Positions 3,001 to 64,000 of a stretch of 64,000 bases of DNA are shown here, piece after piece. This stretch comes from an uncultured Planctomycetia bacterium. GTDB taxonomy: Bacteria > Omnitrophota > Gorgyraeia > 2-02-FULL-51-18. Below the pieces are notes generated by a model. The model ran no database searches. It was not told the DNA's origin and saw nothing but the letters and a program-made list of their open reading frames with translations. The stretch covers positions 8,330 to 72,329 of the forward strand of contig CAYSKO010000009.1 in NCBI GenBank assembly GCA_964431835.1, read 5' to 3'. How positions within the stretch are numbered: position 1 is the first letter of the stretch; every line of letters starts with the position of its first letter. Position numbers and translations under genes: made by a program.

Positions 3001-4700
3001 CCAGCTCCACTATTACGAGGATCCCGCCAATCCAGCCGCGCTCGTGCGTGCGACCGCAACGAACGTGGATTCCGCCCAGCGCGAGACCAAACTCTACCGC
3101 GGCGGCTCGGCGGGCTCCGACGACGTCTCTTCCTTGAAGCTCCAGACTTGGACGTACTTCAAGGGCCTCTCGGGCGAAGAGAAGGTCGACTACACCCAGA
3201 CCTACAAGTCGAACGGAACCGACGTCCGCAACACGACGATTTCCTATTACGAGGATCCCGCCAACGCCGCCGCCCTCGTGCGCGCTTCCACCGCCGACGT
3301 GGATTCGGCGATGCGCGAAACGAAACTCTACCGCCTTGGCACCGCCGGCTCCGACGACGTATCCTCCTTGAAGCTCCAGACTTGGACTTATTTCAAGGGC
3401 GATGTCAGCGAGGAGAAGGTGAACTTCGCGCAAAACTACAAGGCGAATGGTACTGACGTCCGCAACACCACCATTTCCTACTACGAGGACCCCGCCGACC
3501 CGAACGCGCTCGTACGGGCGGCCGCGGCGCAGGCCGACTCCGCGATGCGCGAGACCAAACAGTGGCGCGGAGGCACGGCCGGCTCGGACACGATCTCCGC
3601 CACGATGAAACTCCAGACCTGGACCTACTTCAAGGGCGACGTCTCGGAGGAAAAGACCCACTACATGCAAGCTTACAAGTCCGACGGGAGCGTCCGTTCC
3701 ACGCAGATCTACTATTACGAAGATCCTGCGGGCGGAAACGGTCTGGTGCGCGCCGACGTCGCGGGCGTGGATTCGGCGATGCGCGAGACGAAGATGTTCC
3801 GCCTCGGAACCGCGGGTTCGGACAACGTCTCTTCCTTGAAGCTCCAGACTTGGACATACTTCAAGGGATTCGCGACCGAAGAAAAAACCGACTTCGCGCA
3901 GAACTACAAGTTCGATGGCACGAGCGTTCGCTCGACGACGATCAGCTACTACGAGGACCCCGCGGGCGGGGCGGCTCTCGTGCGCGCGGCGCTGGCGGGC
4001 CCCGACTCGGCGCTTCGCGAGACCAAGATGTACCGTTTCGGTTCGGCGGGTTCCGCGGCGACGGGCGGGCTCAATCTTCAGACCTGGACCTACTTCAAGG
4101 GAATCTCCGGCGAGGAAAAGACCGACTACGCTCAGAACTACAAGCGCGACGGCGTCACGGTACACGGCACCACGATCTCGTTCTACGAGGACCCCGCAGG
4201 TGGCACGGGCGTCGTGCGCGCGGAGACGGCCAACGGCGACTCCGCCCTCCGCGAAACCAAGAGCTACAAGAACGGCACTGGTGGCTCGGACGCGATCGTC
4301 GCCGGTATGGATCTCTTGAGCTGGACCTACTTCAAGGGGCTTTCGAGCGAGGAAAAGAGCGACTTTTCGATCAGCTACAAGAAGAACAACGACGTGCGCA
4401 GCACCCAGATCACCTGGTATGAGGACGTGAACGGCGCCGGTCTTGTGCGCGCGGCCGACGCGGATGTGGATGCGGCGATGCGCGAGACGAAGCTCTACCG
4501 GAAGGGCACGACGGGCTCCGACAACGTCGCGAGCCTCAAGCTCCAGACCTGGACCTACTTCAAGGGCCAGATGAACGAAGAAAAAACCAATTTCTCGCAG
4601 TCTTACTGGACGAACGGAACGACCGTCCAGAACACGACGATTTCCTACTACGAGTCGAACCCCTCGGGCGGCGCGCCCGAGCGCGCGGCCCAGGCGTCCG
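2..4700 (+). repeat. Tandem array of about 20 copies of a 79-aa (237-nt) coding repeat; degenerate copies continue to about nt 5460
   Basis: The motif (M/L)KLQTWTYFKG recurs with its first codon at nt 71, 311, 545, 782, 1019, 1249, 1487, 1721, 1958, 2192, 2435, 2676, 2903, 3135, 3371, 3604, 3838, 4070, 4308 and 4535. Unit consensus: ...SAQRETKLYRGGTAGSDxISAxMKLQTWTYFKGxxxEEKTDYxQNYKxDGTxVRNTxIxYYEDPANAAALVRAxAADVD. Two subtypes alternate: xISATMKLQ with ALRETKxWRGG, versus DNVSALKLQ with SAQRETKLYRLG. The window starts inside a copy, so the array extends upstream. Confidence 0.85.
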
Positions 4701-40700: not shown

Positions 40701-43700
40701 AGCTCTTTGCCAACGGGCGCACCGTGAACATGACGTTCGAAACCAACGGCGTGACCCAGCAGATGCGCATCCAGGGCCCCGGCGCGAAAGCGGAGATCTT
40801 CGTCCAGGCGCGCGGCACCGACGGCACCGAGGTCGGCGCGTGGATCGGCGGTACGACGAGCAACAACGCGTTCGCCATCGGCGGTCCCGACGCGGTCGCC
40901 AACGTCGCCGCGTTTGCCAACGCGGCCGCCGCCACGGACCTCGGCAATTCCGCCAACCGCGAGACGTTCATGCGGACGTTCGAAAGCAAGAATTTCCCGA
41001 TCCAGGCCACCTTCGAAAAGGGCGGTATCACCCAGCAGATGCGCATCCAGGGCCCCGGCTCGCAGGTCGAAGTGCTCGTCCAGACGAAGTCCAAGGACGG
41101 CGTCGTGCTCGGTCTCTGGGTGGGCCGCGGTGCCGGGCAGAGCGCCACTCAGAACGCGGGCACGCTCGCCGCCGAAGCCGCCGACCACGACATGCGGACT
41201 CAGCCCCAGCGCGAAGCGTTCCTCTCACGGTATGTGCGCGAGCCCGCGACGAGCGCCACCGCCCAGGCCCAGGGCTTCAGCCCGAACCAGGTCTTCCCGG
41301 CGGGTTTCTCGGTGAACGCGACGTTCGAACTGAACGGCGTGAGCCAGCAAATGCGCATCCAGGGCCCCGGTTCCAAGGTCGAGATACTCGTTACCGCCAA
41401 GAGCCACGATGGTACCGACACCGCCACGTGGATCGGCGGAGGGAACGGCCTCTCCGCGAGCCAGGTCGGCCGTGCGTTCCAGCTCGCGGTCTCGACGGCC
41501 AATCTCACGACCGCCGCCCAGCGCATCGACTTTATGCGTCCTTACGAGCGCGCCGGCCACGCGGTCAGCGTCACGTTCGAGAAGAACGGCGTGAGCCAGC
41601 AGATGCGCATCACTGGCCCCGGCGCCCAGCTCGAAGTGCAGGTCATGGCCCGCGGCACCGACGGCACGATCGCGACCGCGTGGGTCGGCCGCGGTAATTC
41701 ACGCGACCACGTCGCAAACTTGAACGAATTCGCAAATCTCGCGGCCCGCGCGAACCTCTCCACTCCGGAGCGTCGCGAGGCGTTCCTTCGCCAGTTCGAG
41801 CAGTCGAACGTTCCTCCGCCGTCGGCCGCCGACGTGAACGCCGGCACCGCCAACGGAACGTCGCCGATCACCATCGGGACGGCGGGCACGCGCACGGGCG
41901 CGTCCTACGGCCTCACGGTTACCTTCGAGAAGGACGACATCACCCAGACGATGCGCATCGCGCAGGCGGGCGGGCAGGTCGAAGTCCAGGTGAGCGCCAC
42001 CAGCACGGACGGCACGCGCGTCACCGCGTGGGTCGGTCGCACGAACCGCGAGAGCGCTTCGAGGACGGCCGAGATCGTGGGCGGCTCGATTCAGTCCGCC
42101 GACCTCTCGACCCCCGAGAAACGCCTCGAATTCATGAAAACCTTCGAACGCAACGGCTCCGACCTCACCGGCGATGCCGCGACGACGTTCAACCGCCAGC
42201 GCGGCTTCTCGCTCTCGATGACCTTCGAGAAGGACGGCGTCACCCAGCAGATGCGCATCCAGGGCCACAACCGCGAAGTGCAGGTGTTCGCGCAGTTCCG
42301 CTCGGCGGACGGCGTCCTCTGTGGCGCGTGGGTGGGCGCGGGCCGCGGCGGCGCGAATGCCGTTGCCGCTTCCACGGCGCTCGTTAACGAAGGCACCGCC
42401 GCGAACCTTGCCACGGAAGACCAGCGCGTCTCGTTCCTTCAGGGCTTCGAGGTCGCGCAGGGCGGCGTCGACATCTCGGTCAATTTTGAAGTGGGCGGCG
42501 TGCTTGTGCAGTCGATCCGCATGAACGTCACGCCGCGGGCCGACGCGCAGAACGGCGACCGCAATTTCACGATGACGATCACCGACTACAACCCGAACGG
42601 CACGCCTTCGCGCGAACGCACCACCGAAGGCGTGCTCGTCAACCGGATCCAAGTCACGTACCAGCAGCGCCACGAGGCGTCGGTGAGCCGCGCCATCGGG
42701 GACCAGTTCCGGGCCGCCGGCAGGGGCCTCGCCGGTTTCGTGGCGGGCGGCGGCGTGTCGATCAGCACTGTCGGCCTCGTCACCGGCACTTTCAGGGGCG
42801 GAATGGCTTTCGTCTCCGCCCAACGCGACCCGACAGCCGATTACTACACGACCGAAACGTACATGCAGGACTTGAATCCTCCCGTGTGGGACGCCCGCAC
42901 GACGACGACGCGCGAGTTCACTTACAACCCCGACGGCAGCTCCTCGGTCGACACGACGCGCACAACGCACAACGCAGGCGTTTTCGACCACTACACCGAC
43001 ACCTTCGTTCCCGCGGGCGCCGCCACGACGACGGTCGAACATTCCGAGTACAACGCCGACGGCGACCGCACGCGGATGACCTCGACGACCACGAACCACC
43101 AGAGCGGGCAAGTGACCGAGCAGAACGGGACCGGCGCTCGAGACGCGGCGACCGGCCAGTGGGTCGAGACGATCAATACGACAGTGAGCAACACGCTGGC
43201 CGGCGGCGCCGACGGCACCGCGGCCGATCAGCCGACGAGCCGCACGCGCGACGTGATCCGCTTCGACGCCGACCACCGCGAAGTTTCCCGCACGCACACG
43301 GATGTCAACGCCGCGGGCGTCGAGTCGAACCCCGTGACCACGCAGCGTATCGTGTACAACGACGGCTCGGTCGGCGTGCAGACCACGCGCGGTGCGCTCG
43401 ACGGCCCGCGGACGGTGCACTTCCAGCGCCTCGACGAGAACGGTGCGCTCATCCCAGGTTCGAGCGTCATGCAGGTGTTCGGTGGCGCGGGCAACACGCT
43501 CGCGGCGTACACGATCCAGGTGAACGTGGCCCGTGAAGGACAGCCCCCGCGTTTCGAGGCGCGTTCGACGATCGTGAACCCGAGCGTTACGCTGAACGGG
43601 CAGAACGGGTACATGAGCATCGGCGTCTCGGCGTCGCACCAGCGCGCGATCGACACCTACGGCCTCACTCGGAACGCCAACGGCACCTACAGCAAGGCCG

Positions 43701-46700
43701 GCGACACCGGAGTTTACCGTCTGAACGCCGACGGCACCGTCCACTACTCGGGGGGAATGGTGGGCGGGACGTACAACCGTCCGTCCACCCTGACGCATTA
43801 CACCGCCGAGGGAAGCGGGGTCTGGAGCTTCGAGTTGTCCGCCGCCGGCCCGCCAGCCGCCGGTCAGCTGTACTTCATCGCTGCGGACACGACCACAGGC
43901 CCGACGACGGCCTCGCACCGAACGATCGCCACGCTCTACAACCTTTCGTCCGTGAACGGGAGCAGCAATTTCGCGAACTCCGACACGAATTTCCGTTACA
44001 CGTTCCAAGCCGACGGCACGGTCCTCGCGACGGACGTCCGCACCGGCCGCTCTCAGGTGGGCACGCTGAACGCCGCCGGAAACGGGGTTACGTGGAATGA
44101 GAACGCTTCGCCGCGGGCTCCCGCAGGCGGCGGTCCCATCGCGGTGACGTTGCCGGGCAACGACACCGTCACGCTGACCGGCGGCACGAGCGGCTTCCGC
44201 ATCACCGAGAACGGCACGGCGATGACGACCGAAGACATGATTTTCGCGGGTCCCGGCGGCCAGAGCCAAGTGCTCCGCCGTGGTGCCGAACTCAGCCTTT
44301 CGAACGATACAAACCACAACGTTAGCATCATCTCGGGCGTGATGGAATTCAACGGCGGCGCTTCCGCCAATCTCCCGAACGGCCACCTTCAGACCATCCA
44401 GCCTCCGACCCCGCCCGCCGAAGGGGACACGAGCAACGACCGGAATCAGGCCTCCGGCCCTACGACTAGTTCCCCCGGCCTCAACACGACTATCTCGCGC
44501 GACCCCGGCGGCCGCCTTCGCCTCACGGGCTCCATCGCGATCCAGAACAATCAATTCGTGATCACCGAAGGCCAGCGGATCAATATCAATACCACCGGCG
44601 ACTTCCGCTTCGGCGACCGGGCGATGACCCAGCAGGGCTCGTTCATGTTCGCGCGCCTCACCGAGCCCGATCCGAAGAAGCGCGAAGCGAACCCGAATCG
44701 CAACCAGCGCGCCGAGATCGTGACGCTCGGCGACTGGCAGTCGAACCAGCGCGCGCACCTGAGCCACACGTTCCCCAAGGAAGGCGCGACCGGGCTCCAG
44801 CGCCATTACAAGACTGAGGCCGAAAACGCGATCAACGATGGCAACGCCTCCCGCGCAAGCGCCGCGATGAACATGATCAGCGCCGCGGGCCAGGCCTACG
44901 CCATCCGCGAGCTTTCGGGCAGCGGCGCCCGAGAGCTTAACGACGTCGCGCAGAGCGGCACCTTCAACAACTTCGGGTACAATGACGTTCTCACCGAAAT
45001 GGACGAAGCGCAGCTTGCGCAAATCATCGGCGGCAACCGCCAGTTCGCCGCGTTTGTCGGGACTTATATGACCCTCCGCGGCATCCACCAGCAGCAGGAA
45101 GCTCACAAGGACGACGACGACGTGAAGGCCCAGCGCGCGCAGTTGGCCGCCATCGGCTTCAACCTGAGCAGCGACTACGATTGCGCCCGCTTGGCGCAGG
45201 CTCTCTCGGAGCCAGACTCCATGCTCCGCATCGAAGTGGGAGGCACGAGCCGCTACCTCCGCACCAAGGACGTCGAGGTCGGCGGCAAGAAACTCGAGAA
45301 GTGGGTCAAGGACGCTTCCAGCGACCTGCGCACGTGGTTCGACGAAAAGGCCTACGAAGAGAACGGTGGCAGCGGCAGCAAACTCACGTGGTGGGACCGC
45401 AACAAGTCGTACGTGTACATCGTGGGCGCGATCGCGCTCGCCGCCGCCACCTGCTGGATCCCGGGCGTGAACGTCGTGACGGCCTCCATCGCCGCGGGCG
45501 TCGCGTTCACGGTCGCGGTCGTGGCGCAGGTCGTCGCGAAAGGCCTCGACAATCTCCGCAAAGGCAACGGCTTCTTCACCGGGATGGCGACGGAGTGGAA
45601 TTGGAGCCCGATCGATAAGAACGGCATCCTTTTCAACGCAATCAACGCGGCCGCGCAGAGCTTCGCGCTCGCCAACGGCCTTGCGGCGCTGGGCCAGCTC
45701 GTGAATCACATCAAGTCCGCCGCCGACGTCGCAAAGAACGCGGGCCAAACGCTGACCACCGTGCAGCGCGTGGCGACCTCGGTGCAGGCCATGGGCACCG
45801 TGACCCGCGCGGTCACCTTGGGCCTTACGTTCGCCGCGGCGAACGTGGCGATGACCGTCGGTGCGCAAGCCGTCGAGAACATCCTGAGCGGGAAGGATAT
45901 CGGGCACAAGATCACGGCCGGAATGGTGTGGACCGCCGCCATTCAAGGTTTCGTCGTGGGCGTCACGGCGGGTTACGGCGCGAGAATGTACGGCGCGAAA
46001 GAGGCTTTCGCCAAGGCCACCGCGGGAATGCTCACGCGCGGCGCCATCACCAACGGCGTCATCGCGACCGCTCGCGCGGTTCAGTACGGCGTGATGTTCA
46101 CGGTGCCGTCCATGATCATGTGCGGTCTCGGCTTCCTCCTGGCCGCGGAAGTAGGCGCCGCGGCGGACGGCAAGACTCTGACCACGACCGACCGCGTCAC
46201 CGCGTTCGTCTCCGGCGCGATCGTCGGCATGATCATCAACTACGCGACCTCCCACAAGGCGACCGCGAAACTGAACGATTTCGCCAAGAACACCGGCAAG
46301 CTCGGAAGCGAATCCGGCAAAGGATTCCGGGACGGCGTCAAGTGGACCTACCAGCAGGGCTCCGCGTGGCACGTCACGAAGACATTCGGTCTGGGCGCCC
46401 TGGAGTGGGGCACGATGGTGTCGGTTCCGTTCACGATCGCCAACGGCCTCGTCGACGCGATGAAGAACGGGTTCGCCAACGGCGGTGGCATCGCGGGCGC
46501 CCTCAAGGGCATCATCGGCTGGTTCCACCCGATGACCGGCTTCACGATCCGGGGTCCGAGCGGCAAGCAGGACGATCAGGTCCGCATCGGTTCGCGCCAC
46601 GGCCTCGGCATGCTCTCGAACGCGATGACGCACGGCTTCATGGAAGGCCTCTATCTGAAGCCCATTCTCGGCGCCTTCCAGAAAGTGCACACGGCGCCCC

Positions 46701-49700
46701 CCCTCGGCGCTCCGGTTCAGGGGTGGGGCGGCTGGGCGATCGAGAAGTCGGTCCATCTCACATTCGACCAGGCGCACATGGCGTTCGAAATGGACTTCAT
46801 CAGCCGGGCGCTCGAGCTGGCCTCCCAGAAAGACGAGCACGGACACGACCGCGCCAGCACTGGTTTCAACGCTTTCACGGCGAACCTCATCATGTGGACG
46901 GTGCTCATCACGAAGCCCGAGGCGCTTTCGCGCGGCGGGTTCAAGGAATTCGCCCGCGAGATGAAAACCCACGCCGCGCAGGCCGAAGGCGTCCGCGCGA
47001 CGGGCCAGGGCAAGAACGACGGCGGGCTCAATACGAGCGTCGCGCGTCCCGAGACGATCGCCGAGACCGGCCAGCGCCTTGCCGAAAGCACGGCCGCCGA
47101 ACGCCAGACCGCCGCCGAAGAAGCTCCAAAGCATCAGCAGGCCGCTCATGAGCAGCTGAACCAGGATCTCGCCAACAACGTCCCGAAGGCGGAAGCGGTC
47201 GCCCGTTTCAATATGAACGTCGCTGAGGCGGACGCATCCAATGCCGCACGGACCCACGGCACCGGCTCCACCCAGCACTCCGAGGCGCTCACGCGGCTTT
47301 CGAACGCGCTCGCTGACGGTCAGGGCAAACTGCCGAAGGCCGAATTCGAAGCCGCCAAGCAGAATCTCACGGAACAATTGAACGAGGTCAACGCGTACCT
47401 CGCAGGCGGCACAGCGACGAACGCCGAGCTCGCGGCCGCCGCGCACCTCGCCGTCGCCGCCGCTCCGGTCGCCGGGCAGACGGCGCTCGCCACGACCGTT
47501 CTTCAGCAGATGCGGACGGCCGTCGCCGCGAACCCGGCCGAGGCCAAACAACTGGTCGACGCGTTCCGTGCGATGAATACCGCCTTCCAGACGTCCGTCT
47601 GGGACTCTGTACGCAAGTTGCTGACCGGCGAAGGGAACCCCATGACAGCGCTCCTCGCCGACGCCGCCGCGAACGTGGCCCGCACCGCCCTCGACGCGTG
47701 CAGGCCGGAGAACGTCGTCGACGCCGCTTCGGCGAAAGCCGCTTCCGAGGTGCTCAGCGCGCTGAACGGCGAAAAAGTCTTCCAGAACGCGATGAGCGAC
47801 GGGCAGAAGGCGCAGGTCCAAGCCCGCGCGCTCGAAATCGAAACGAAGGTCGGCGAGCTCATGAAGACGGAAGTCGACGTCACGAATCTCGAGATCTTGA
47901 TCGACACGATCTCCGCTCTCCAGGGCGTGAACGCCGCGGTCGGCACGGCCTCCGCCGCCACGATGCTCGAAGCCACGGGCAAGGCCCGCACGGCGGCTCT
48001 CGACAAGCTCCGCGAATCCAACCCCACGAAGGACGGTTACGACAAGGCCCTTGAAAACACCGAAAAGGCGTTCGAGCTGAGCACGAAAGCCACGGCGATC
48101 GTGACGCGCTCCACGGCGAAGACGCCCGCCGTCAAAGCCGCGCTCCAGACTAACGCCGACAGTCTGCTCAAGGATTCGGCGACGGCCCGCGAGAAGGTCA
48201 CGGCGGACTTGGAAGGCGCCATGGGCCCCTCGAAGGCCGGACTCAAGTTCATCGGCAGCATGATGAAGTTCCTTCAGGCCAACGCGAGCTTCCTGTCGGC
48301 CGCGATGCTCGAGATGAAGAACGCGGGTGTCAAGATCGACGCCGACGGCGTGAAGGCCAATCTCAAAGCGGTCGTGGCGACCGTCGAAAAGGCGCTGACT
48401 TTCGTCGCAGAGAATTTCGCCGATTTCGCGAAGTTGGGCCTGGACGGCCTGAACATGGTCGCCGACGTCATGAAGGCTTCGATGGATCTCCTGCGCCTGG
48501 CGGCCAAGGAAGGCGTCAATATCGAGGCGGCGACCGTGAAGCTCGTCGAATTGGCCGGCAAGTTCATGGCCCACATCGCGGACGCCAACATCGAGAAGCT
48601 CGTGGGCGGCGACTCCGGCAAGCTGCTGAATCTCGCGAACATCATCAACATCAACGCCCAGGCCATTAAGTTCGCCGCCGACGTCCTCGGTCCCGAGCAC
48701 GCGGCCGTTCAGGAAGCGGCGGAACACCTGGCGAACGCGATCACGAAGGTGAACACCTACATCGCCAACAACGTGAACCGCCTCATCGGAACCGACGCCG
48801 CGAAGCTCGCGGACGTGGCGAACGCCCTCACGATGAACGCGCAAAGCCTGCGCGTGGCCGCCGAGATCCTCGGTTTCGAGAACTCCGCGGTCCAGAAGGC
48901 CGCCACGACTCTCGCGGACGCCATCACGAAGGTCACGAATCACGTCACGAAGAACCTCGCGGCGATGGTCGGCGGGGACGCGAACAAGCTCGCGACCGTC
49001 GCTTCGGCCATCCTCGCCAACGCCTCGTCGCTCGGTGTCTCGGCCTCGATCCTCGGACACGGCCACGCGTCGGTCGTCGCGGCGTCCCGCGCGATCACGA
49101 ACGCCGTCCGGGCTATCACCGCACACACGAGCGCCAACTTCAACGCCCTGGTCAAGGACGCGAGGTCGCTCGAGAAAGTCACGACGGCCCTCGCCGACGC
49201 GGTCACCGCCCTCACGCGCGTCGCCACCAGCATGTCGCTCAACGCCAAGGACTACCGCAAGCTGAGCGAGGCCTCCGGCGAAGTGTTCTCGCTCATCGCG
49301 GGCAAGGTGTCCTCGGCGATCTCGACGATGGCGGACAAGGCCTCGACCGCCGCCGAGATGCGCAGCGTCGCCAACGCCCTCACGAAGGCGATCAACGCCG
49401 TGAACGTGATGGCTCAGCGCAACATGGTGGACGGCGTCGACGCCGCGAAGGTGACCGAGCGCCTGAGCAAGACGCTGGTGAAAGTGCTCGAAACGATGTC
49501 GGGCCAGAAGGCCAAGGGCAACACGCTTGCCGAGAAGATGAAGAACGCCCTCGAGAATTCCGTGAAGGGCGAAATCTGGTCGGGCCTCGAGACGGGCGCC
49601 AAAGCCGACATGCTGAAGGCCGCCCGCGCGGCTCTAGGCGGTGAAGCCGCCCGCGTGATGGGTGAAGGCGAGATCGGCGCCGCTGTCAAACAGGTCTCGG

Positions 49701-52700
49701 ATCATTACACGAAGCAGGCCGAGAGGGAGATGGCCAACGGCAAGGTCGGCGAAGCCGCCGAGTCGTACTCCGAGGCGCTCCGCGTCGATCCGATGTCGGC
49801 CACAGCCGTCGCGTCCGCGATCGTCGAAGCGGTGTCCTCGAAGGACGCGCGCGCGGTCGAGCAGCTCACCGAGAAGCTCCAGGACAACCCGACCGCGCAG
49901 AAAAACCTGCACGAAGCGCTTAACAAACTGATGGAACAACAGAACCTGCAGGTCAGCGACGCGCAGGTGGCCGAAATGGTCAAACTCGCCGAGCGCCTCG
50001 CGGTCGCGGAGCGTTCGCAGGAAACCGCCGCCGAAGCCAAGCCCGCCGAAGCGCGTCCCGAGACGGCCGAGGCGCCTCGCGTCGAGGGCGAGAAGAAGGC
50101 CGAAGGCGAGGCCGAGGCGAAGGATCCCACGCAGAAACTGAAGGACCTCGTCGACCAGAGCGGCATGCGGAAGAAGCTGACCGAAGTCCGCGACCGCCTC
50201 CAGGAAGACATCAAGAATAGCGCTGAGCAGGTGGAGCTGGTGAATAAGGCGATGGACGGCGTCATCGCCGAAGACGTCGCGTTCGTCCAAAAAGCCCTCG
50301 ACGGCATGCCGGAAGCCAAGCGCGCCGCCGCCGAGCAGGCGCTTAAGGAACAGTTGAACCTCGAAGTCGGCGAAGCTCTTCTGGGCAAGGACGGGAAACC
50401 GACGGGTGAATTCCGCGGTTCGAACCTGACCGTCCGGACCGCCGACGGCATCCTGACCCGCCTGGGCAACGCCGCGGTCACCCTCAGCGGACAGTCGAAA
50501 GCGCGCCAGGTGCGCGGCGCGGCCGTGGACGCAGCGATGGCCAAGCGAGACAAGGCTACGGCCGAGAAGAAAGCCACCGATCCTTCGACGGGCGCGAAGT
50601 GGACCGCCGAAGCGAAGGATGCTCTCACGGATCCCAAGCAGCTCGGCAAAAAATACGTCCGCATCGGCGGCGAGCTTTTCAACCGCAAGGCGGTCAGCGA
50701 AGCGGTCGCCAAAGCCGATGGACCCGCCGCGAAGAAACACGTCGAATCGCTGAAAGGCGAAAATAACAAGCAGGCCCGCGAAGACCTGAAGAGAGAGTGC
50801 GAAACCGCGACCGAAGTCGATCCGCTCGTCACGATCACCGTGGACGTCGACGGCACGCCCACGAAGGTCCGTCTCCATGCCGACGCATTGCGCGCCGAGG
50901 TCGAGTCCTACGAAAAGGACGCCGCGAAGGTACAGGAAAGCAAGGGCCAGGAAGGCACCATTCTTAATGAAGGCCGCCAGGCAAACGGTGATCCCGCCGT
51001 ACCGACCGGTAAGGGCACAAAGACCGCCGCTCCGGCCGCTCCGCGAACCACGGCCGAGGTTCCCAAGCCGGAAGCTCCGAAAGCCGCCGGAGAAGCGGGT
51101 GGTTCCGCGAAACCCGCCGCCGAGGGATCGCGTCGTCACCGCGCGAGCGCCGACCCGGCGAAGCTCGAAAAAGAAGCCGAAGGCCACCAGAAGAAGGCCG
51201 GAGAGCTCAACGAAAAAGCCGACCGTCTCGACGCGCGCGCCGACGCCCTGCGCGCCGAAGCCGAAGACGTCGCCCGCAAAGCCGAAGGCAAAGAAGGCGA
51301 AGCGGCCGCCGCCCAGAGCCAGGTCCAGCGCCTCTTGGCGAAAGCGGAAGCGCTGAGCAATAAAGCGGAAGGTCTCCGAGCCGAAGCGCGCGCCGCCCAT
51401 AATAAAGCCGAAACGCTCGAGAAAAAGGCGGCCAATCTGACGGCGGAATCCATCAATCTTCGCGCCAAGGCCGCCGAGAAACGCCGCGAGGCCCAAGATG
51501 TCGAGAAGAAACCGAAAGTCCAGGACGTTAACCAGGAGGACGCATTCCAGGACGGCGTCCACTACAACGCGGCGACCGACGGCCAGATGGGGCGCTCCGA
51601 AGTCTGCCGTTACGACCGCCGGACCGATTCCGTTTTCCGCAAGTTCGTCGCCGAAGGCAAGACCGCCTGCGACGCCGAGGCGCGACGCATCCAGCGCAAG
51701 GAAGGCCGCGAGATGACCGCCAAGGAAAAAGTCTTCTTCATGACCGAATTTGTGACCGAACGCATCGATTACGACAAGCCCGCTCTCCAGAAGATCAAGG
51801 CGAGGGCCGACGCAGCCGGCCGCGATTCCGTCGACATCGGCGAGATGATCAAAGAAGGCGTCGGTGTCTGCCGCCAGAAGGCGATGCTTGTCGGCTTCCT
51901 CCTCGCCGAAGTGGGCGTGAAAGCCAAGCTCTCCAACGGCGGCGCTCTGACCCACACGGGCGAACTCGGCGAGACCTACGGCGGCCACGCGTGGCTGACC
52001 GTCGAGGTGAACGGCAAGAAGTTCTACTTCGACCCCACGTGGGCCGAGGGCCAGAGCGCCAAAGACATGCGCCTTCTCTCGATGGATAGCGCGACCGTGC
52101 AGAAGACTTACAAAGAAGACATGACGCCGATGGTTAAGGGCGGCCGCAAACTTTTCGTGAAGGACGGCGGCGCTTCGCGCGCGGAAGCTCTACGAGCCGA
52201 GGCCACGGCCCTCGAGAGACAGGCCGATGCGAAATGGGCCGAAGCGGAAGTCGCCCGCGGGAGCGACGAAAGCTACCGCCGTGAGGCGACAGCCAAGGAA
52301 GCCGATGCCGCGCAACTGACCGGCCAGGAAGCGCCGATCAGGCGCGACGCGCAGTCCGCCTCGCGCCAAGCCAACGACGCCCGCCGGGAGGCGTCGAACC
52401 TCCGCCAGGACGCCGAAACCAAGAGCGAGAGGGCCGAGTCTTACGAAGTTCAGGGCGCCGAAGTCCGTGGCCGCGCGGCCGTCGAAGGGGCCAAGGCCAA
52501 CGAAGTCGGCGAGATGGCGCGTGAAGTCCGGAGCGAACAGGAAGACGCGGCGCGCCTGGCGACCGATCTCAGCGGGAATCTCCGCGGCGAGCGCGAAGCC
52601 GCTCCCGAGGCCGGAGAATCCGCCCGCCTCGCCGAGCCTGCCGGAGAGACCGCTTCCGCCGAAGCCCGCCGCGGCAATCTGCGCGGCCGCCAGGCCAGCG

Positions 52701-58700: not shown

Positions 58701-61700
58701 TGACCGCCGCCCAGCTCGAGACGCTCCGCACGAACCTCGCCGAAGGCGCCGCTCCGAAGGCCCCCGAGGCGCTTCGCCGCTTCGACGCGGAAATCCTCGC
58801 CGAAGCGCTCGAAGTCGGCAAACTGGAAACTCTGAAGGCGGCCGAGATCGTCCGCACGCTGACTCTGGCCGAGCGGAACGCGATCCGCGAGCTCGGCGCC
58901 GTCGACGGAACGCTCGCCCGCTTCGACGCCGAAACACTCGCGACCGCGCTCGGCATGAACAAAGCCGAGCTCGCCGCGGCCCGCAAGCTTCTGGACGGCG
59001 TGCAGGAGACGGTGCTTCGCGGAATCCTTTCCGCGCTGCCCGACGGCGCGCGTTCCCTGACTGTTCGCGACATCCTCGACGCCGCCCGTCCCGCCGACGG
59101 CATCCTGAGGGACAAAGTGGAACTCGCCAAGGCGGAGTTCGACGCCTTGAAGCTCCACGCCGAGGAGCGCGAGGCGATCGCGGCCGACGCGGCCGCCGGC
59201 CGTATCGACGCGGCGCGCGAGAAACTCACCCGCGCCGCCGAACGCGCGGCCGTGGCGCTCGAAACCGAGCTCACCGAATCGGTCACCGCCAAGCGGATCA
59301 CGCCCGAAGTGAAGGCCGAACGCCTCGAGGCCTTCCGTAAAGGTCTCGCCGAGACGATCGCGGCCGTGGAAGCTCCCGCCCTCGGCGAAGCGATGCACCG
59401 CCTCACCAACTCGGCGGAGGTCCTGAAGGCGCGCAGAGCCTTCAAGGCGTTCGAACAATTCCTCGTGTTCCAGGTCAAGGCGGGCCGTATGACCGAGGGC
59501 CAGCGCCGTACCGCGCTCCTCGAGATGCGGAACGAGCTCCTGCACGGCCGGTCGGACGCGGTCAAGGAAAATGCGGTCAAGGCGCGCTTCGACGGCTTCA
59601 AGGCGTTCTCCCTCGAAGTGCTTCGCGAGGCGGCCGGCGTGAGCGCTGACGTCGCCTCCCGCGCGCACCAGGCGGCCCAGCAGACGATCTTCGAATTCTC
59701 TCGCTCTATCCAGCGTGATCTTCTGGCCAAGGTCGAAAAGCTCACTCTTCTGGCCAAGGTCGAAGCCGGGGATCTCGCGGTTCTTCCGGAAGGCCTCCGC
59801 GGAAAATCGCTCGAGGTGCTGCGTCAGGCCCTCGGGGCGACCTCCGAGCAAGTGGTTTTCGCCCGCGAAGCGGTCGGCGCCCTTGCGATTCCGGAGCTCC
59901 GCCGCCTGGGCGTCGAAGTGGCCCGCGATCTTCTGCGCCGCGCCGAAGCCGCCGAGCGCGACGGCCGCGCCGCCGAAGCCGCCGAGCTGCGCGACGCCTT
60001 CGCGATGGTCGGCGCCCGCGTCGCCGTGGAGCTCGAAGCCCACGCCGAACGGGCCGAAAAGAACGGCAACAAGGCCAAAGCCGCGGAGTTCCGCGACGCC
60101 GCCCGGTCGCTCGTCGAGGAAATCCGGAGCGAAGCGCTGGCCGCGGAAGAGGTCGCCCGCCTCTCGTCCGCCGAACTCGCGAGCGTGAAAGAAGCCCTCG
60201 TCCGCGGCGAAGTGAAGGGAGAGCTGGCCCTCTTCGGCGAACGGGCCGTCCGCAAGGCCGTCCTCGCCCGCGAAGCCGCGGAAGGCAAGTTCCGCGGTGA
60301 CGGCACGACGCGCGGCGAGCTTCCCGAGAAGGTCCGCGCGTTCTCGATCGAAACCCTCAAAGCGGCGCTCGGCGTCCGCGCCGAGCTCGTGCGTCCCGTG
60401 ACGAAGGTCACGGTCGAAGGACGCGAGCTCTCGAGCGCGGTGGTCCGCGACGCGCTCGCCCGCAACGTGGACGCGCAAGCCGACGCGCTCCTGGCCCGCT
60501 TCAAGGTCGCGCCCGCTCCGCGTTTCTCCGCCGCCGACTGGGTCTCTTCAAAAGTCGGCCGCGAGACGCGTGACGCGCGGGCGCAGCGCAAGCTCACCGA
60601 GACCCTTCTGGGCATGGGCGAAGCGAAGACGCACAAATTCGGCTACGAAGCGCCTCCCGCGCCGGCTCCTCGCCGGACCCGCAGCGGCGCGCCCGCGCGT
60701 GAAGGCAAGCTGGATTTGGGAGTGTTCTTCGACGCCTACCAAGTCCTTACCCAGGGCCGCGCCCAGGTCTTCAGCCGTGAAGCGATCAACCGCGCGCTCC
60801 AGAAACTCGAACAGAAGACGATGGGCGTCGACGCCGCCGCGAAATTCGTGCTCGAATGCCTCACCGTGGGCAACACGATGGAGCAGTACAACAAGCTGAA
60901 GACGCAGAAGCTCGACAAAGAAAGCGAAAGGGAGAACCTGGCCGCGCTGGAGGTCATTGCCAATCCGATGGAAGTTGCACGCCGCCTCGGCGAGTCCGTC
61001 GTCGAGAAGATCCAGGCGAAGGGCGAGGCGTACCTCCTTGCCAAAGAAGCGGTCGCCCAGCTGGAAAACGCGACTACCCGCAGAGCGCTCGAAGTCGCTC
61101 AGAGCGAACTCATGACGGCCTTCCGCGAAGCGCGCGGCGGCGCGAAGAACCAGTCGTTCCTCGATCTGGCCGTCAAGACGGGCATGGTCGAGAAGGCCGA
61201 ATTCGGGGACGTGTTCAACGCCTACAAGGCGCTCCGCGTCGGGGAAACCTCCGGTGGCTACGCCGAGTTCAACACGAAGAACCGTGCGTCGATCGAGCGC
61301 GTGATGTCCGAGTACAAGCTCGAGTTCGACGCGTACGAGAAGAGGCTTTCCGGCGACCCGATGACCCGGATCAAGCAGCTCAACGAGATCATGCGCCAGG
61401 AACAGGCGGCCGCGCCGGGCGAACGCGTCGGCGTGATCAAGGCGACGGCGATCACGGATCTCATCTTCCGCAATTCGTACGTGTCGGAAGGCACGAAGAT
61501 GCACCTGAAGGACGCCGGCTGGCGCCCGGGACAGCGCCTCATGATCATGCATCTCATGGGGAACAACAGCGTCTCGCTCGGAACCGCCGGCGGCAAAACG
61601 TACACCCTCATGGGCTACCACATCATGCGGCGCCTCACCGACGGCGAGACCTACCGCGGCAAGCAGGTCGTGGAAAGCCCCGACGCCGTGAACCAGATCA

Positions 61701-64000
61701 TCTCCGCCATGGAGCTCAAACTCCGCGTGGAAGGCAAGAAGACGGACGCGGAGATCTTCAGCGAGCTCGAATCGCGCCGTTCGGAGCTCAACTCCGAGCA
61801 TATCGTCATTAAAAACATGATGAAGGCCTCGGGCCTGCGCCTCTTCAACGCGACCGCCTACCAGGGCGGCGAGCTGCGTAACCACTCGGAACGGAGCGCG
61901 CGCGTGATCGACGCTCATACCGACAAGAACACGATCGTCGTCATCGATACCGTCAACAACGTCCACTTGAGGAACGAAGCGAAGTCGGCTGCCGAGAAGG
62001 GCGACACCAAGCTCTTCGAAGCGCTCCTCAAGTCGCGCTTCATCACGCTCGACGAATTCCACAAGTTCCTTTCGAACAAGAACTCGGGCATCATCGCGGA
62101 AAACCAGCGCATGCCGGAGCCTCGCGAAATCGAGTCGCTCATGGAAAACGTGATTTCGAAAATCGCGGACTCAAACTTCAAGCTCCATTGGGAGCCGGTG
62201 CGTTATTCCACGGAGACCGAATTTGAGGCGGCCGTCGCGAAGTACACGAACGGCGAAGGCGCGAACGAAATGAAGATCCTCATCAATTCCGAGACCGGAC
62301 AGATCAACCTGAGCAAGGCTCTCAACGACAGCCTGCGCACGGCGCTCGGCCCCGAGTTCGGTAAGGTGCGCTCGGTCATCTCGGCGCTGGACGCGAACGA
62401 ATTCCATTACAAGATCCATACCGACAAGGAAGGCAAGACGAAGGTCATCCCGGTCAACGGCCGCGAAGGCACGCCGAGCCCCGATTCGAGCTTCCAGGAC
62501 ATCGAGTACTCGATGACGCTGGCCCTGAAGCACACGAAGGGCAACACGGCGACCGCCCGAGAGATGGTCAGCCGCAGCGATACCTCGATGTCGAGCGCGA
62601 TCGCCGAGAGCGTGCACATCCCCGGCGCGGTCGTCACCGGCGTCTCGGGCACGCTCGGCGGCCTCGAGGCTCTCCAGAAATTCCAGATTGGCGAGAGGGT
62701 CGTGAACATCTCGGGTTCCGTGCTCGACGCGGTCCGCGTGGGCGGCACGAGGGGCCAGATCTTCGACATGTCGACCGGCGAGCAGGAATGGCTCGACGGC
62801 ATCAATTCGTCGCTCCGCGAGAACGTCACGGTACTCCTGGTCGTGAGCGCGAAGGAGCGCGACGCGATCGAGAAGTTCCAGAAAGGCGACTTATTCAAGT
62901 CCGCCGACGGCAAGCCGGTCGAAGTCGCGAAGATCGACTCCAACACGAGCGGCGAATCGAAGAACGGCCAGGCTTCGGAGATGGATCAGCTCGTCAAGTC
63001 GCCGTGGGGCAAGGACGGCCGCGCCCGCGTCATCCTCATCACCGAGCGCGGCTGGACGGGCCGTGACTACGCCCAGAACGCGGAGCTCGCGAAGTTCGTC
63101 GACGGCAAGCTCATGCACCAGTCGGTGCACATGGCCTTCTACAAGGCGCACACGATCGGCGCCTCCGACTTCGTGCAGGCCCTCGGCCGCGCCGGCCGCA
63201 GCGAAACCGAGGCCACGGTTCGCCGCTACTTCCTCGTGGACAAAACCGAGATCCGCCAGCGCCTTTCGGATCTGAACGACGGCCGCGTCCGTTCGGATTT
63301 CCGCCAGAAACTGAACGAGCGCCTCCGCGACAACCCCGCGGCGGTCGGCGAGACGCTGCGTCTCCTCAACAATTACGAGCGCCGCCTCAACATCGAAGAC
63401 TTGAGTCCCTCCGAACAGCTGCGCTTGAACGCTCAGTTCCTCGAGCTTTCCAACGCGATCGCCGACGGCGCGCGTCACACGGTCCGCGAGAACTGGCGCA
63501 GCTCGATCGAAATCGACCCGTTCCATCAGGCCATCAAGGCCGCCGCTCTCGCCGGCGGCAAGGGGAGCGCCCACTACCGCCGTCTGGACAAGGCTTACAA
63601 GGATCTCCTCGGCAAGCAGAGCGAAGGCGGCGATCTGACGCTGAAGGACGCCGGCGTGGGCAGCGGCGTCGACTTCGTGATGGACACGGCGCGCCAGAGC
63701 GTGAAGAACGCCAAGGAAGCGTGGAAGAACGTCGTCGACAGCATGGACGCGTCGAGCTTCGGCGCGGGCCGCCTTCTGGGCCGCGTGCCCTTCTCGATCC
63801 GCTTCTGGAAAGGCATCGTGCCGATTCCGTCGACTTCCGCGCCCGCGTACGAAGCGCGCCAGACGCTCGCCAAGCTCGAAGCGCTCGAGAAGGCTTTCCT
63901 GACCGGTAACATCGAAGCGACGCGCCTGCAGGTCGAGCGCGTCCAGCTCGGCCTCGACTCCGGCAAGGTCCGTGTCGAAACGCGCGGCATCGGCCGCCTC
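2..64000 (+). CDS. Internal fragment of a giant multidomain protein gene (21,333 codons in window; 5' and 3' ends lie outside the window)
   Basis: Continuous translation in the phase beginning at nt 2 gives protein-like sequence end to end. Hand translation at more than 10 checkpoints stayed in the same phase (atg 71, atg 545, GVTMAILD at 6881, GHGT at 7052, RWSYKK at 11222, atg 30527, atg 45986, Cys 51869, atg 52886, Lys 61595, GKVRVETRGIGRL at 63962..64000). The ORF track contains no + ORF in this phase, whereas an in-phase stop would have produced a reported Met-to-stop ORF, so there is no stop in 64 kb. Third codon positions are strongly G/C-biased in this phase only. Recognisable catalytic motifs (S8 triad, TGase triad, Walker A) all fall in this phase. 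Confidence 0.9.
6790..7650 (+). other. Subtilisin-like serine peptidase (MEROPS S8) domain embedded in the giant ORF; catalytic Asp/His/Ser all present
   Basis: Asp motif GVTMAILDSGFN (Asp codon 6899..6901). Calcium-loop-like DDDGNGYIDDVDGWNF. His motif DKLGHGTNVARAAL (His codon 7055..7057). NGAKVINLSIGGG, then AAAGNQG (oxyanion Asn region). Ser motif SESGTSMAAPLVAGAVALLMSKYP (Ser codon 7460..7462). Order and spacing D...H...N...S match subtilases. Confidence 0.85.
7750..10450 (+). other. Beta-rich region with several DUF5666-like short modules (tentative family assignment)
   Basis: Recurrent pattern G(T/S)V..VD....(T/S)I.V.G..V.V....(T/S)..........L..L..G..V.V. Examples: GTVLRDSRSRTITLADLKPEDYVQIRLVQTPEGWHAERV near 9570 and DATVEDVEGRIFPGGLADLSALLQAGQVRVSIKL near 9800. 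Family name is from memory of the DUF5666 consensus and is not verified. Confidence 0.35.
10570..14740 (+). repeat. About 10 tandem 140-aa beta-sandwich repeats (MAM/CUB-like jelly-roll; family tentative)
   Basis: Each unit shows ...G.W..Q.....(S/A)..S..I...........(S/T)F.WK(V/L)....(A/S).D.(F/L).(F/V)Y(V/I)DGV.......(G/D).W......L..G.H.L.W.Y(D/K)(R/K).(S/G)......D.A(W/Y)(I/V)D(E/D)(V/I). Units begin near 10570, 11000, 11330, 11740, 12170, 12610, 13030, 13470, 13900 and 14320 with X(T/G)F.YP.GT.LPLP.G(Y/F)T..G.W.NQN. Confidence 0.6.
14790..18670 (+). repeat. 7 tandem 185-aa repeats resembling Laminin_G_3 / concanavalin-A-like lectin domains
   Basis: Each unit contains ...Y(V/L)YFR(M/T)......GYA..(I/V)......(L/I)YR.......(I/L)......GAS(Y/F)DP(A/T).YH.LK(V/A)..DG..I.V.VDG........D..Y.G........(G/I)......P(V/I)WFDDV(K/R)(V/A). 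The WFDDV-type terminal motif recurs near 15285, 15840, 16400 (TFDDF), 16970 (IFDDF), 17525, 18085 (SFDDV) and 18655. Confidence 0.6.
18700..30450 (+). repeat. About 36 tandem 95-115-aa repeats (DUF5666-like beta modules; novel-looking array), some with Cys-pair inserts
   Basis: Period is about 300-340 nt. Recurring unit: G(E/D)W.(F/L)......(F/L)..........(S/T)LL..V......I.L.DG..I.(L/I)G...I(Y/F)WWNG.......(A/S).L...I......G..V. Examples start at 19378, 19687, 19960, 20270 and 20570, continuing to about 30450. Variant units carry Cys pairs: CAIGQGC (19241..19261), NCWNCY (23087..23098), NNCGSSLCP (23403..23425), CNSWSCY (27472..27489). Confidence 0.6.
30450..36450 (+). other. About 2,000-aa non-repetitive region of unknown function (mixed alpha/beta, many W/Y/D/N)
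   Basis: No internal periodicity seen by eye and no catalytic motif recognised with confidence. Contains the segment GISAFSAMSIF...AGAKLLVHMGDDHYITVDEYDAENDQIWFYED (30560..30930), which loosely resembles a papain/C39-like fold without the Cys. Confidence 0.4.
36450..42600 (+). repeat. About 21 tandem 85-115-aa repeats of a QQMRIQGPG family (unassigned)
   Basis: Unit: (F/V)...G(F/G)(S/A)(V/L).(A/V)(T/S)FE(K/L)(N/D)GV(S/T)QQMRIQGPG(A/S).VEV.V.(A/T)...DGT....AW(V/I)G(R/G).........NA...A..AA..DLST...REAF(M/L)..FE. The QQMRI motif occurs at roughly 38870, 39190, 39450, 39760, 40120, 40450, 40760, 41030, 41350, 41600, 41950 (TQTMRIAQAGG) and 42250; earlier copies are more divergent. Confidence 0.8.
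42900..44350 (+). other. Thr/Gly/Asn-rich beta region with YD/RHS-repeat-like motifs (tentative)
   Basis: Motifs of the Y.YD..G.. type: REFTYNPDGSS, EHSEYNADGDRTRMT, QRIVYNDGSVGVQTTRG, GVYRLNADGTVHYSGG, FRYTFQADGTVLATDVRTGR, TLNAAGNGVTWNENAS. No canonical RHS C-terminal DPxGL pair was recognised. Confidence 0.35.
45400..46540 (+). other. Polytopic membrane block: 8-9 predicted transmembrane helices (Gly/Ala-rich)
   Basis: Hydrophobic stretches of about 20-25 aa: SYVYIVGAIALAAATCWIPGV; VVTASIAAGVAFTVAVVAQVVA; ILFNAINAAAQSFALANGLAALGQLV; VTRAVTLGLTFAAANVAMTVGAQAV; ITAGMVWTAAIQGFVVGVTAGYGA; AITNGVIATARAVQYGVMFTVPSMIMCGLGFLLAAEVGAAA (probably two helices); VTAFVSGAIVGMIINYATS; TFGLGALEWGTMVSVPFTIANGLV; GGIAGALKGIIGWFHP. 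Short polar loops lie between them. The block is flanked upstream by beta repeats and downstream by alpha-helical/charged sequence. Confidence 0.6.
48590..49320 (+). repeat. About 4 tandem 60-aa alpha-helical repeats
   Basis: 180-nt period: N..(K/R)L.G.D..KL..(V/L)A.A...NA..L..AA.(I/V)LG.(E/G)(H/N).(A/S)V..AA..LA(N/D)AITKV......N, starting near 48595, 48775, 48955 and 49135. Confidence 0.5.
51780..52070 (+). other. Transglutaminase-like (papain-fold) domain core with Cys-His-Asp
   Basis: GEMIKEGVGVCRQKAMLVGFLLAEVGVKAKL (Cys codon 51869..51871). GETYGGHAWLTVEVNGKKFYFDPTWAEG (His codon 51986..51988, Asp codon 52031..52033). This reproduces the G.C...A.L...LLR..G(I/V).AR ... HAW.EV...G.W...DPT signature of transglutaminase-like cysteine-protease domains. 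Confidence 0.65.
53263..53400 (+). repeat. In-frame 18-nt (hexapeptide) short tandem repeat, about 8 units
   Basis: ETKIETETRTETETRTEAEVRTEAEVRTEAEVRMEAETRTEAE; nucleotide units such as actgaagccgaagttcgg / accgaagctgaagttcgc / accgaagcggaagttcgc at 53315..53368. Confidence 0.8.
57400..60550 (+). other. Alpha-helical region with recurring F..E.L..ALG-type motifs (unassigned)
   Basis: RRFDAEILAEALEVGK, ARFDAETLATALGMNK, FKAFSLEVLREAAGVSAD, RGKSLEVLRQALGATSEQ, VRAFSIETLKAALGVRAE each precede Ala/Leu/Arg/Glu-rich helices. Confidence 0.4.
61380..63260 (+). other. SecA-like SF2 (DEAD-like) ATPase motor domain: NBD1, PPXD-like insert, NBD2
   Basis: Q-to-Walker-A spacing identical to SecA: PGQRLMIMHLMGNNSVSLGTAGGKTYT (Lys codon 61595..61597; compare SecA [27 protein letters not shown]). 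Walker-B position is IVVIDTVNNVHLRNEA (compare ALVDEVDSILIDEA), so the catalytic Glu appears replaced. An insert of about 230 aa ends ...SMTLALKHTKGNTATAREMVSRSDTSMSSAIAESVHIPGAVVTGVSGTLGGLEA, paralleling the SecA PPXD C-terminal part and the KLAGMTGTADTEA motif. Motif V-like ARVILITERGWTGRDY (compare IATNMAGRGTDI). Motif VI-like FVQALGRAGRSETEATVRRYFLVD (compare [24 protein letters not shown]), codons 63184..63198 for GRAGR. Confidence 0.6.

Follow-up and report, generated by a model that had tools for sequence, protein, structure and literature searches.

Giant proteins of the Omnitrophota are the closest described systems to the one analysed here. In their 'Dockerin-type' members, the N-terminal majority of the chain is devoid of transmembrane (TM) helices and bears DUF1080 domains; TM anchors sit near the C-terminus, ahead of SecA-related domains that are intracellular (West-Roberts et al. 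2023, bioRxiv 10.1101/2023.11.21.568195). Some giant proteins also carry N-terminal S8-like domains (bioRxiv 10.1101/2023.11.21.568195). A 2026 survey predicted TM helices or a signal peptide in 94% of the long Omnitrophota proteins, with 46% 'TM-only' (bioRxiv 10.64898/2026.06.07.730766), and a mean of 22 helices per protein of at least 10,000 residues has been reported for giant proteins. How a bacterium manages to make, export and retain a chain this long is a general question. Here we analyse a stretch of 64,000 nucleotides (nt) from an uncultured bacterium of the Omnitrophota (GenBank assembly GCA_964431835.1, contig CAYSKO010000009.1, positions 8,330 to 72,329 of the forward strand; hereafter the window), which is spanned by one giant open reading frame (ORF), and in particular a Gly/Ala-rich hydrophobic cluster within the encoded protein.

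Outside this cluster, the more than 21,000 residues of the protein offer no site that could meet a membrane; the cluster therefore fixes which parts of the chain would lie outside and which inside. The window protein shares with the Omnitrophota giants its length of tens of thousands of residues, an extended N-terminal portion that lacks TM helices and bears modules for adhesion and glycan processing (DUF1080 among them), candidate TM helices clustered towards the C-terminal part ahead of sequence predicted to be intracellular, and the high divergence of its known domains. Unlike them, it has one TM cluster in 21,333 amino acids (aa) against the reported mean of 22 helices, no SecA_DEAD domain detectable by profile and, beyond a generic S8 domain, no sequence relation found to any database protein (no homologue of aa 14181-16700 was retrieved). 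Neither dockerin nor EF-hand nor TSP3 repeats were detected in the window protein. The general layout, an exported-type arm, a TM cluster and a cytoplasmic-type part, has already been reported from predictions on giant bacterial proteins, and the cluster adds an example rather than a principle. By analogy, it appears to resemble the published anchors in role, as a sequence orphan. What is noteworthy is its uniformly marginal hydrophobicity together with its complete lack of relatives, and the cluster by itself is less remarkable than the giant orphan gene that contains it.

A hydrophobic cluster unique in a giant protein

A stop-to-stop scan of plus-strand frame 2 found no stop from nt 2 to 64000, that is, 21,333 codons in a frame that is open at both ends of the window. 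The GC content at third codon positions (GC3) in this frame is 0.75-0.89 in each 3-kb block, 0.89 in the cluster region and about 0.86 overall, in a window whose GC content is 65%. Because the frame is open over 64,000 nt and GC3 is high throughout, it is a genuine coding sequence, for a protein of more than 21,333 residues; residue i corresponds to nt 2+3(i-1), and all features given below lie on the plus strand. The whole 21,333 residues contain only 22 cysteines. A minus-strand ORF at 41699..49126 (2,475 aa), which was first taken as the giant protein, is an antisense artefact of the high GC content, and its product has an Arg/Gly/Val-rich antisense composition.

From first to last candidate helix, the cluster covers aa 15137-15514 (nt 45410-46543). 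This agrees with an earlier sequence-only reading, which had placed a bundle of 8-9 hydrophobic helices rich in small residues at nt 45400-46540 (aa 15134-15513). Over this interval Gly and Ala make up 30.5% of the residues (99.6th percentile of equal-sized windows), as that reading had noticed, and hydrophobic residues 32.4% (99th percentile); Asp, Glu, Lys and Arg together fall to 11.3%, the minimum of the protein, and in the cluster core charged residues reach their lowest value in the protein, 9.6%. With a 19-residue Kyte-Doolittle (KD) window, six peaks of at least 1.6 were found in the protein, three of them in the cluster (1.90, 2.09 and 1.99), and the 500-aa bin starting at 15,000 holds 86 windows above 1.0, compared to 20 or fewer in every other bin. 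No internal paralogue of the cluster was found elsewhere in the protein.

The apparent insertion free energy (dG) was scanned after Hessa and von Heijne with our own implementation. Poly-Leu, poly-Ala and the glycophorin A span served as simple controls and all behaved as expected. For calibration we used proteins taken from the E. coli genome, LacY and SecY as membrane proteins and SecA, LacZ and LacA as soluble ones. The scan recovered exactly the 12 helices of LacY (-3.7 to +1.9) and the 10 of SecY (-4.9 to +1.1), and zero segments below 3 kcal/mol in SecA, LacZ and LacA; in 8,694 aa of SecA homologues, a single segment fell below 1.5 kcal/mol. Applied to the 21,333 residues of the giant protein, it returned 12 segments below 1.5 kcal/mol, half of which lie within 280 aa (aa 15137-15416). 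A binomial estimate for this clustering is about 5e-9. Thus, the cluster is real, far beyond chance, and is the sole credible membrane-embedded region of the protein. As had been proposed, it consists of several helices rather than a lone anchor helix, with six TM-grade segments within those 280 aa. Since SecA, LacZ and LacA gave no segment below 3 kcal/mol, the calibrated scan also argues against the stretches being buried beta or globular core.

The first two candidate helices lie back to back. T1 (aa 15137-15156, nt 45410..45469; YVYIVGAIALAAATCWIPGV) has a dG of -0.21, a KD peak of 1.90, a mean Eisenberg hydrophobicity (⟨H⟩) of 0.71 and a hydrophobic moment (muH) of 0.13; it closes with a Pro-Gly turn. 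Only N15157 then intervenes before T2 (aa 15158-15179, nt 45473..45538; VVTASIAAGVAFTVAVVAQVVA; dG 0.39), whose KD peak of 2.09 is the maximum of the protein and which is directly followed by KGLDNLRK. T1-T2 is either a tight helical hairpin or a single hydrophobic stretch of 43 residues, which has no charge and a KD value of about 2.0. Then come Ha (aa 15208-15234, nt 45623..45703; GILFNAINAAAQSFALANGLAALGQLV), a weak segment containing Asn and Gln (dG 3.09, ⟨H⟩ 0.51, muH 0.10), and two marginal TM candidates joined by a 15-aa loop: T3 (aa 15266-15288, nt 45797..45865; dG 0.82), with R15269 and N15281 inside it, and T4 (aa 15304-15330, nt 45911..45991; dG 0.74, muH 0.03). T5 (aa 15360-15388, nt 46079..46165; VQYGVMFTVPSMIMCGLGFLLAAEVGAAA; KD peak 1.99) has a dG of -0.20 and is, with T1, one of the only two segments of the whole protein with a dG below 0; a 9-aa loop leads to the marginal candidate T6 (aa 15398-15416, nt 46193..46249; dG 1.28). 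Hc (aa 15461-15484) and Hd (aa 15494-15514; together nt 46382..46543), with dG values of 2.36 and 4.23 and ⟨H⟩ of 0.54 and 0.56, are a possible fourth hairpin of weak, Gly-rich helices. Past the cluster lies a further weak hydrophobic segment, the outlier He (aa 15617-15637, nt 46850..46912; dG 1.81).

On the Eisenberg scale, T1, T2, Ha, T4, T5, T6, Hc and Hd have ⟨H⟩ values of 0.46-0.71, and the cluster helices overall (0.41-0.71) fall within the membrane zone. In all eleven candidate helices muH is only 0.03-0.25, and the combination of low moments with high ⟨H⟩ is membrane-type, not surface-amphipathic. The cluster thus shows the closely spaced segments of 17-29 aa with dG near or below 0 that polytopic membrane proteins generally have, none of them strongly negative. 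The proposed number of 8-9 helices stood in part: six are TM-grade by dG (-0.21 to +1.28), but Ha, Hc and Hd qualify on the Eisenberg plot of ⟨H⟩ against muH only, so that the count is six secure helices plus up to three doubtful ones. Duplication among the four hairpins was not convincing (z <= 3.6). A single-sequence AlphaFold2 model of aa 15101-15640 was all-helical, but its predicted local distance difference test (pLDDT) score of 38 makes it unusable; the model was not used and no fold search was made with it, because at this score matches would be meaningless. The helical state is putative, a prediction from hydrophobicity logic and from this unusable model.

Orientation and role of the cluster

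Topologies were compared by enumerating all combinations of candidate helices and counting Lys and Arg (K/R) in alternate loops. The short loops are poor in these residues, with none in the one-residue T1-T2 loop, two in T3-T4 (15 aa), one in T5-T6 (9 aa) and one in Hc-Hd (9 aa); the N flank, the T2-T3, T4-T5 and T6-Hc loops and the C flank hold 4, 4, 4, 8 and 4, respectively. This alternation suggests three or four helical hairpins. The bias is greatest when Hc and Hd are counted, eight TM spans giving 24 versus 4 (bias 20) with both flanks on the K/R-rich side, and six spans 17 versus 3. Strong K/R asymmetry of alternate loops is typical of real inner-membrane proteins, and the positive-inside asymmetry that is generic to polytopic proteins is present here. 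In every good topology model the C flank is on the positive, normally cytoplasmic, side, which agrees with the presence downstream of a domain of Cys-protease fold and of a possible NTPase.

The reading that we prefer, tentatively and at slightly less than an even chance, is that the cluster is a membrane anchor between an exported N-terminal arm and a cytoplasmic C-terminal part. The six to nine closely spaced, Gly/Ala-rich marginal helices, arranged as three or four hairpins with short loops, would form a membrane-embedding module, sit in the cytoplasmic membrane of the producer and tether the giant chain there. On the cytoplasmic side would lie a C-terminal portion at least 5,800 residues long, with helical rods rich in Ala, Glu, Lys and Arg, a transglutaminase-like domain and, perhaps, an SF2/SecA-like NTPase. 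The other portion, N-terminal and at least 15,000 residues long, would be an exported arm directed to the surface, which bears tandem repeats, an S8 protease and modules of CBM-like, DUF1080 and laminin-G-like type. An exported arm is favoured because its domains are of the Peptidase_S8, CBM_35_2, CE2_N, DUF1080 and Laminin_G_3 types and its cysteines are paired; such domain types are normally found outside the cytoplasm. A cytoplasmic C-terminal side fits because of the Cys-His-Asp core of the transglutaminase-like domain and the set of SF2-type motifs. The published layout of the Omnitrophota giant proteins gives this reading a precedent, and so supports it.

The sequence-only reading had suggested that the cluster is the point where the chain crosses the membrane, exactly at a switch from beta-repeat to charged alpha-helical architecture. 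Crossing at the cluster is plausible but unproven: the cluster is the sole membrane-embedded candidate and lies between the exported-type and the charged helical parts, but the topology with the highest K/R bias has an even number of spans and flanks on the same side. A switch does exist nearby, from T/N/G/S/Y-rich to helix-favouring, charged composition, but at about aa 14,880, some 250 aa upstream of T1; the segment in between (aa about 14890-15136, nt 44669..45409) is charged and helix-favouring by Chou-Fasman and composition profile. An N-out/C-in chain needs an odd number of spans. Seven spans, with the T1-T2 stretch crossing once, give a bias of 14, and nine, with the weak Ha counted, a bias of 7; the membrane status of Ha therefore sets the parity of the topology. 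In short, the N-terminal domain content argues for N-out and the charge count for N-in. Two isolated Gly/Ala-rich hydrophobic segments are found within the beta-rich part, at aa 14243-14271 (nt 42728-42814, dG 0.99) and aa 9113-9132 (nt 27338-27397, dG 0.41). Should the first of these, aa 14243-14271, really span the membrane, the N-terminal arm could be exported and T1 could nevertheless be N-in, as the charge count favours.

Several observations weigh against an anchor with an exported arm. By the plain positive-inside count, an even helix number that leaves the two flanks on one side is preferred (bias 20), and the N-side flank resembles the C-side one, its charged, helix-favouring composition starting about 250 aa before T1. 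Every helix of the cluster is marginal, the best dG being -0.2, compared to several at -2 to -5 in each of LacY and SecY. Neither a signal peptide nor a protein terminus is visible, as the ORF runs off the window. The structure model of the cluster is unusable (pLDDT 38), conservation is not assessable since there are no homologues, and the SecA-like module finds no support from any profile method.

The charge count would be best accommodated by a hairpin anchor with no net crossing, in which three or four hairpins (six or eight spans, N-in/C-in) leave both flanks in the cytoplasm, as in the 'TM-only' class (bioRxiv 10.64898/2026.06.07.730766). These topologies have the highest K/R bias of all (24 versus 4 and 17 versus 3), a single residue after a Pro-Gly turn links T1 to T2, with K/R clusters at both outer ends, and the segment before T1 is charged and helix-favouring like the C-terminal side. 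Such an arrangement would place S8, CBM-like, DUF1080 and laminin-G-like modules and paired cysteines, all within the N-terminal 15,000 residues, in the cytoplasm, where they would be unusual; the T/N/G/S/Y-rich composition of this part is, moreover, typical of exported proteins. We consider a hairpin anchor of this kind unlikely. If the cluster were instead a soluble bundle of Ala/Gly-rich helices, its core unusually apolar and its end running on into the Ala-rich helical region downstream, this would explain why there is no strongly hydrophobic helix (best dG -0.2), why Arg, Glu, Lys, Asn or Gln lie inside several helices and why no aromatic belt is significant at the helix ends (p=0.52). 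The following 6,000 residues, too, are helical, with 17-22% Ala. Such a bundle is hard to square with six segments below 1.3 kcal/mol in 280 aa, where SecA, LacZ and LacA have none below 3, with a core charge of 9.6% that is the protein minimum, or with a 43-residue stretch of KD about 2.0 and no charge. Moreover, the helices of soluble bundles are normally amphipathic, and muH in the cluster is only 0.03-0.25. This leaves the soluble bundle quite unlikely.

The uniformly marginal hydrophobicity also fits secreted membrane-inserting toxins, and for this reason we keep as a low-probability rival a module of toxin type, whose weak hairpins would insert from outside into the membrane of a prey or host, forming a pore or carrying a C-terminal enzymatic part across. 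Secreted membrane-inserting proteins need near-threshold helices to escape capture in the membrane of the producer, and all helices of the cluster are about the insertion threshold (-0.2 to +1.3), far weaker than those of LacY or SecY. The hairpin loops are short and K/R-poor with the charged flanks on one (cis) side, and the order of binding and degrading modules, hydrophobic module and papain-fold enzyme domain is compatible with a delivery device. However, Lys, Asp and Glu occur in the hairpin-tip loops, the low hydrophobic moments leave no amphipathic pore-lining helices, and no toxin translocation or pore family was matched in Pfam (E<=10), the PDB or the phage and plasmid collections. 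The cargo would exceed 5,800 residues, and we know of no translocated toxin domain near that size; the putative NTPase motifs downstream would be meaningful nowhere but in the cytoplasm of the producer.

The suggestion that the bundle might be a conduit, holin, transporter core or oligomerisation pore found no backing: there was no match in Pfam, NCBIfam, PHROGs or the PDB, even at permissive thresholds, and with muH at 0.03-0.25 no helix has an amphipathic, pore-lining face. Nor did the tight packing of small residues proposed by analogy with channels hold up, as small-xxx-small motifs (38, compared to 32 +/- 3.8 in shuffles) were not enriched and GxxxG motifs were likewise not above shuffles. 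A pore or conduit function is thus unsupported. More speculative still, and very doubtful in our opinion, is that the cluster could be an autonomous device for insertion or translocation, kept deliberately sub-threshold, in an orphan protein that exceeds 2 MDa. Either it would enter the membrane of a prey or host once the protein is secreted and deliver part of the polypeptide or, together with a cryptic SecA-like motor in the same chain, it would act as a self-export conduit for the 15,000-residue N-terminal arm.

Searches for relatives and comparison with characterised systems

No relatives of the cluster were found by any search. Residues 15081-15680 matched zero families in Pfam-A at E<=10 and zero in NCBIfam and PHROGs at E<=0.1, and no PDB chain matched the cluster at E<=1; the remote-homology check against transporter and channel families that the sequence-only reading had proposed therefore came out negative. 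A word-index search of a 5.8-billion-cluster collection with aa 15101-15660 and aa 14181-16700 gave no match, and an exhaustive phmmer search of 1.84 billion representative proteins gave no homologue of the cluster. At the nucleotide level, scans of genome, viral and metagenome contigs with peptide patterns of the cluster were empty, an exact 46-mer was absent from the genome, metagenome and viral contig collections, and neither tblastn against phages and plasmids nor megablast against plasmids returned a match. With all sequence-defined tests of membership negative, the cluster is not a demonstrable member of any family. The S8 region retrieved only ordinary S8 peptidases, at about 37% identity and from scattered phyla, and no related giant protein.

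Among characterised giant surface proteins, Ebh of Staphylococcus aureus (about 1.1 MDa) has a C-terminal membrane span and a charged cytoplasmic tail. The window protein shares with Ebh a huge, repeat-built N-terminal part, probably extracellular here, a candidate membrane segment towards the C-terminal part and, beyond it, charged and probably cytoplasmic sequence. Where Ebh has one strongly hydrophobic span and a short tail, the window protein has 6-9 marginal helices and a C-terminal part that is at least 5,800 residues long and includes enzyme-like domains. Pfam scans detected no Ebh-type similarity.

The pore-forming domain of colicins, the T domain of diphtheria toxin and the delivery domain of TcdA/TcdB resemble the cluster in their Ala/Gly-rich marginal hairpins with short tip loops, set within a large multidomain protein with binding and enzymatic modules. 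Unlike these domains, the cluster is not surrounded by amphipathic helices and its flanking domains are orders of magnitude larger. None of the Pfam models for colicin pore-forming, diphtheria toxin T and TcdA/TcdB pore-forming domains matched the cluster at E<=10, and the PDB gave no match at E<=1. The tested features do not indicate membership in the toxin helical-hairpin families.

TgpA-type proteins combine an N-terminal multi-TM domain with a Transglut_core domain. The window protein likewise has a polytopic TM cluster and a Transglut_core match with an intact Cys-His-Asp triad in one polypeptide; unlike in the TgpA type, the two elements are about 1,800 residues apart and the transglutaminase match is weak (E about 1e-4). 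Neither the N-terminal TM domain of TgpA nor any other Pfam TM family matched the cluster.

Flanking parts of the protein

Past aa 15,650 the protein has 17-22% Ala and is rich in Glu, Lys and Arg. The transglutaminase-like (papain-fold) domain at aa 17235-17345 (nt 51704..52036) lies in this part, flanked by long Ala/Glu/Arg-rich helical stretches. It scores 23.6 bits against Transglut_core (6.6e-5), above the cut-off of 23, and Cys17290, His17329 and Asp17344 are all present. The match to PDB 9crn_A (E=8.3e-5), in which the C, H, D triad is aligned, is weak but consistent. Cysteines on the C-terminal side are single, except for one CGSC motif (aa 17633-17636, nt 52898-52909). A short-period Glu/Thr/Arg repeat (ETRTEAEVRT...) at aa about 17761-17800 (nt 53282-53400) precedes a region of over 1,000 residues in which Ala accounts for 17-22% and Glu for 11-17%. 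Such stretches are possibly single-alpha-helix or coiled-coil rods.

Near the end of the window, at aa 20525-21070 (nt 61574..63211), we read a candidate set of SF2-type NTPase motifs, which has no profile support. The motifs are colinear: LGTAGGKT at 20531, ITLDEFH at 20684, GVSGT at 20882, TERGWTGRDY at 21014 and QALGRAGR at 21059. The colinear triple GK[ST] / DE.[DH] / Q..GR.GR did not occur in any of 5,000 shuffles of the protein, and the spacing from motif II to motif VI is 375 residues, compared to 361 in E. coli SecA, whose preprotein-binding domain is inserted between these two motifs. Note that the candidate Walker A loop is one residue shorter than the canonical one. The region had no match in Pfam, NCBIfam or PADLOC at E<=10 or among PDB sequences, and BLASTP against E. 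coli SecA was not significant. Smith-Waterman comparison with shuffles gave z of about 1.5, a hidden Markov model built from 13 SecA and SecA2 sequences (annotated records) scored the region no better than shuffles, and hhalign with SecA aligned motif I only, at 1.4% probability. The putative SF2/SecA-like NTPase is thus a lead at the level of motifs only. It matters as a lead because published giant proteins bear SecA-related domains after their TM anchors. As a separate observation, plasmid pJCM18538 of Mycolicibacterium arabiense (NZ_AP022592.1, 186000-201000) encodes a hypothetical protein of 3,473 aa, one region of which is SecA-like but divergent (25% identical to SecA of E. coli). Its neighbours are a 'toxin glutamine deamidase domain' protein of 9,434 aa and a gene for a type VII secretion target; BLASTP detected no relation between the 3,473-aa protein and the window protein.

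Upstream of the cluster, the N-terminal part is T/N/G/S/Y-rich, and Pfam detected in its first 15,000 residues Peptidase_S8, CBM_35_2, CE2_N, three copies of 3keto-disac_hyd (DUF1080) and Laminin_G_3. The subtilase (Peptidase_S8) domain at aa 2291-2535 (nt 6872..7606; Pfam 8.8e-35) has the DSG, HGT and GTSMAAP motifs, and could process the giant polypeptide itself, as has been suggested for Omnitrophota giant proteins. The cysteines of the N-terminal part come in close pairs (aa 6414/6420, 7696/7699, 7802/7807 and 9158/9163), which are possible disulfides or metal sites.

By self-comparison, most of the N-terminal part consists of repeat arrays, at aa 1-1850, 3510-4920, 4900-6230, 6300-9500 and 12230-14177. 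The one just upstream of the cluster has about 19 tandem copies of a repeat of about 100 aa (aa 12276-14157, nt 36827-42472), which are 35-47% identical and share invariant R, F, F, R, W and G residues. With the internal copies as alignment, this repeat was modelled at a pLDDT of 78.5 as two short helices and a six-stranded sheet; a fold search of the model against the PDB gave no match with E<1, and the repeat may be an undescribed domain. At the other end of the window, 16.6 copies of a Tyr/Thr-rich tandem unit of 78 aa (234 nt) extend over nt 74-3990 (aa about 25-1330, at the protein level to about 1850). The units have about 70% DNA identity and 65-70% protein identity, with a super-period of 468 nt, and from this sequence comparison the array appears to be the most recently expanded repeat in the window.

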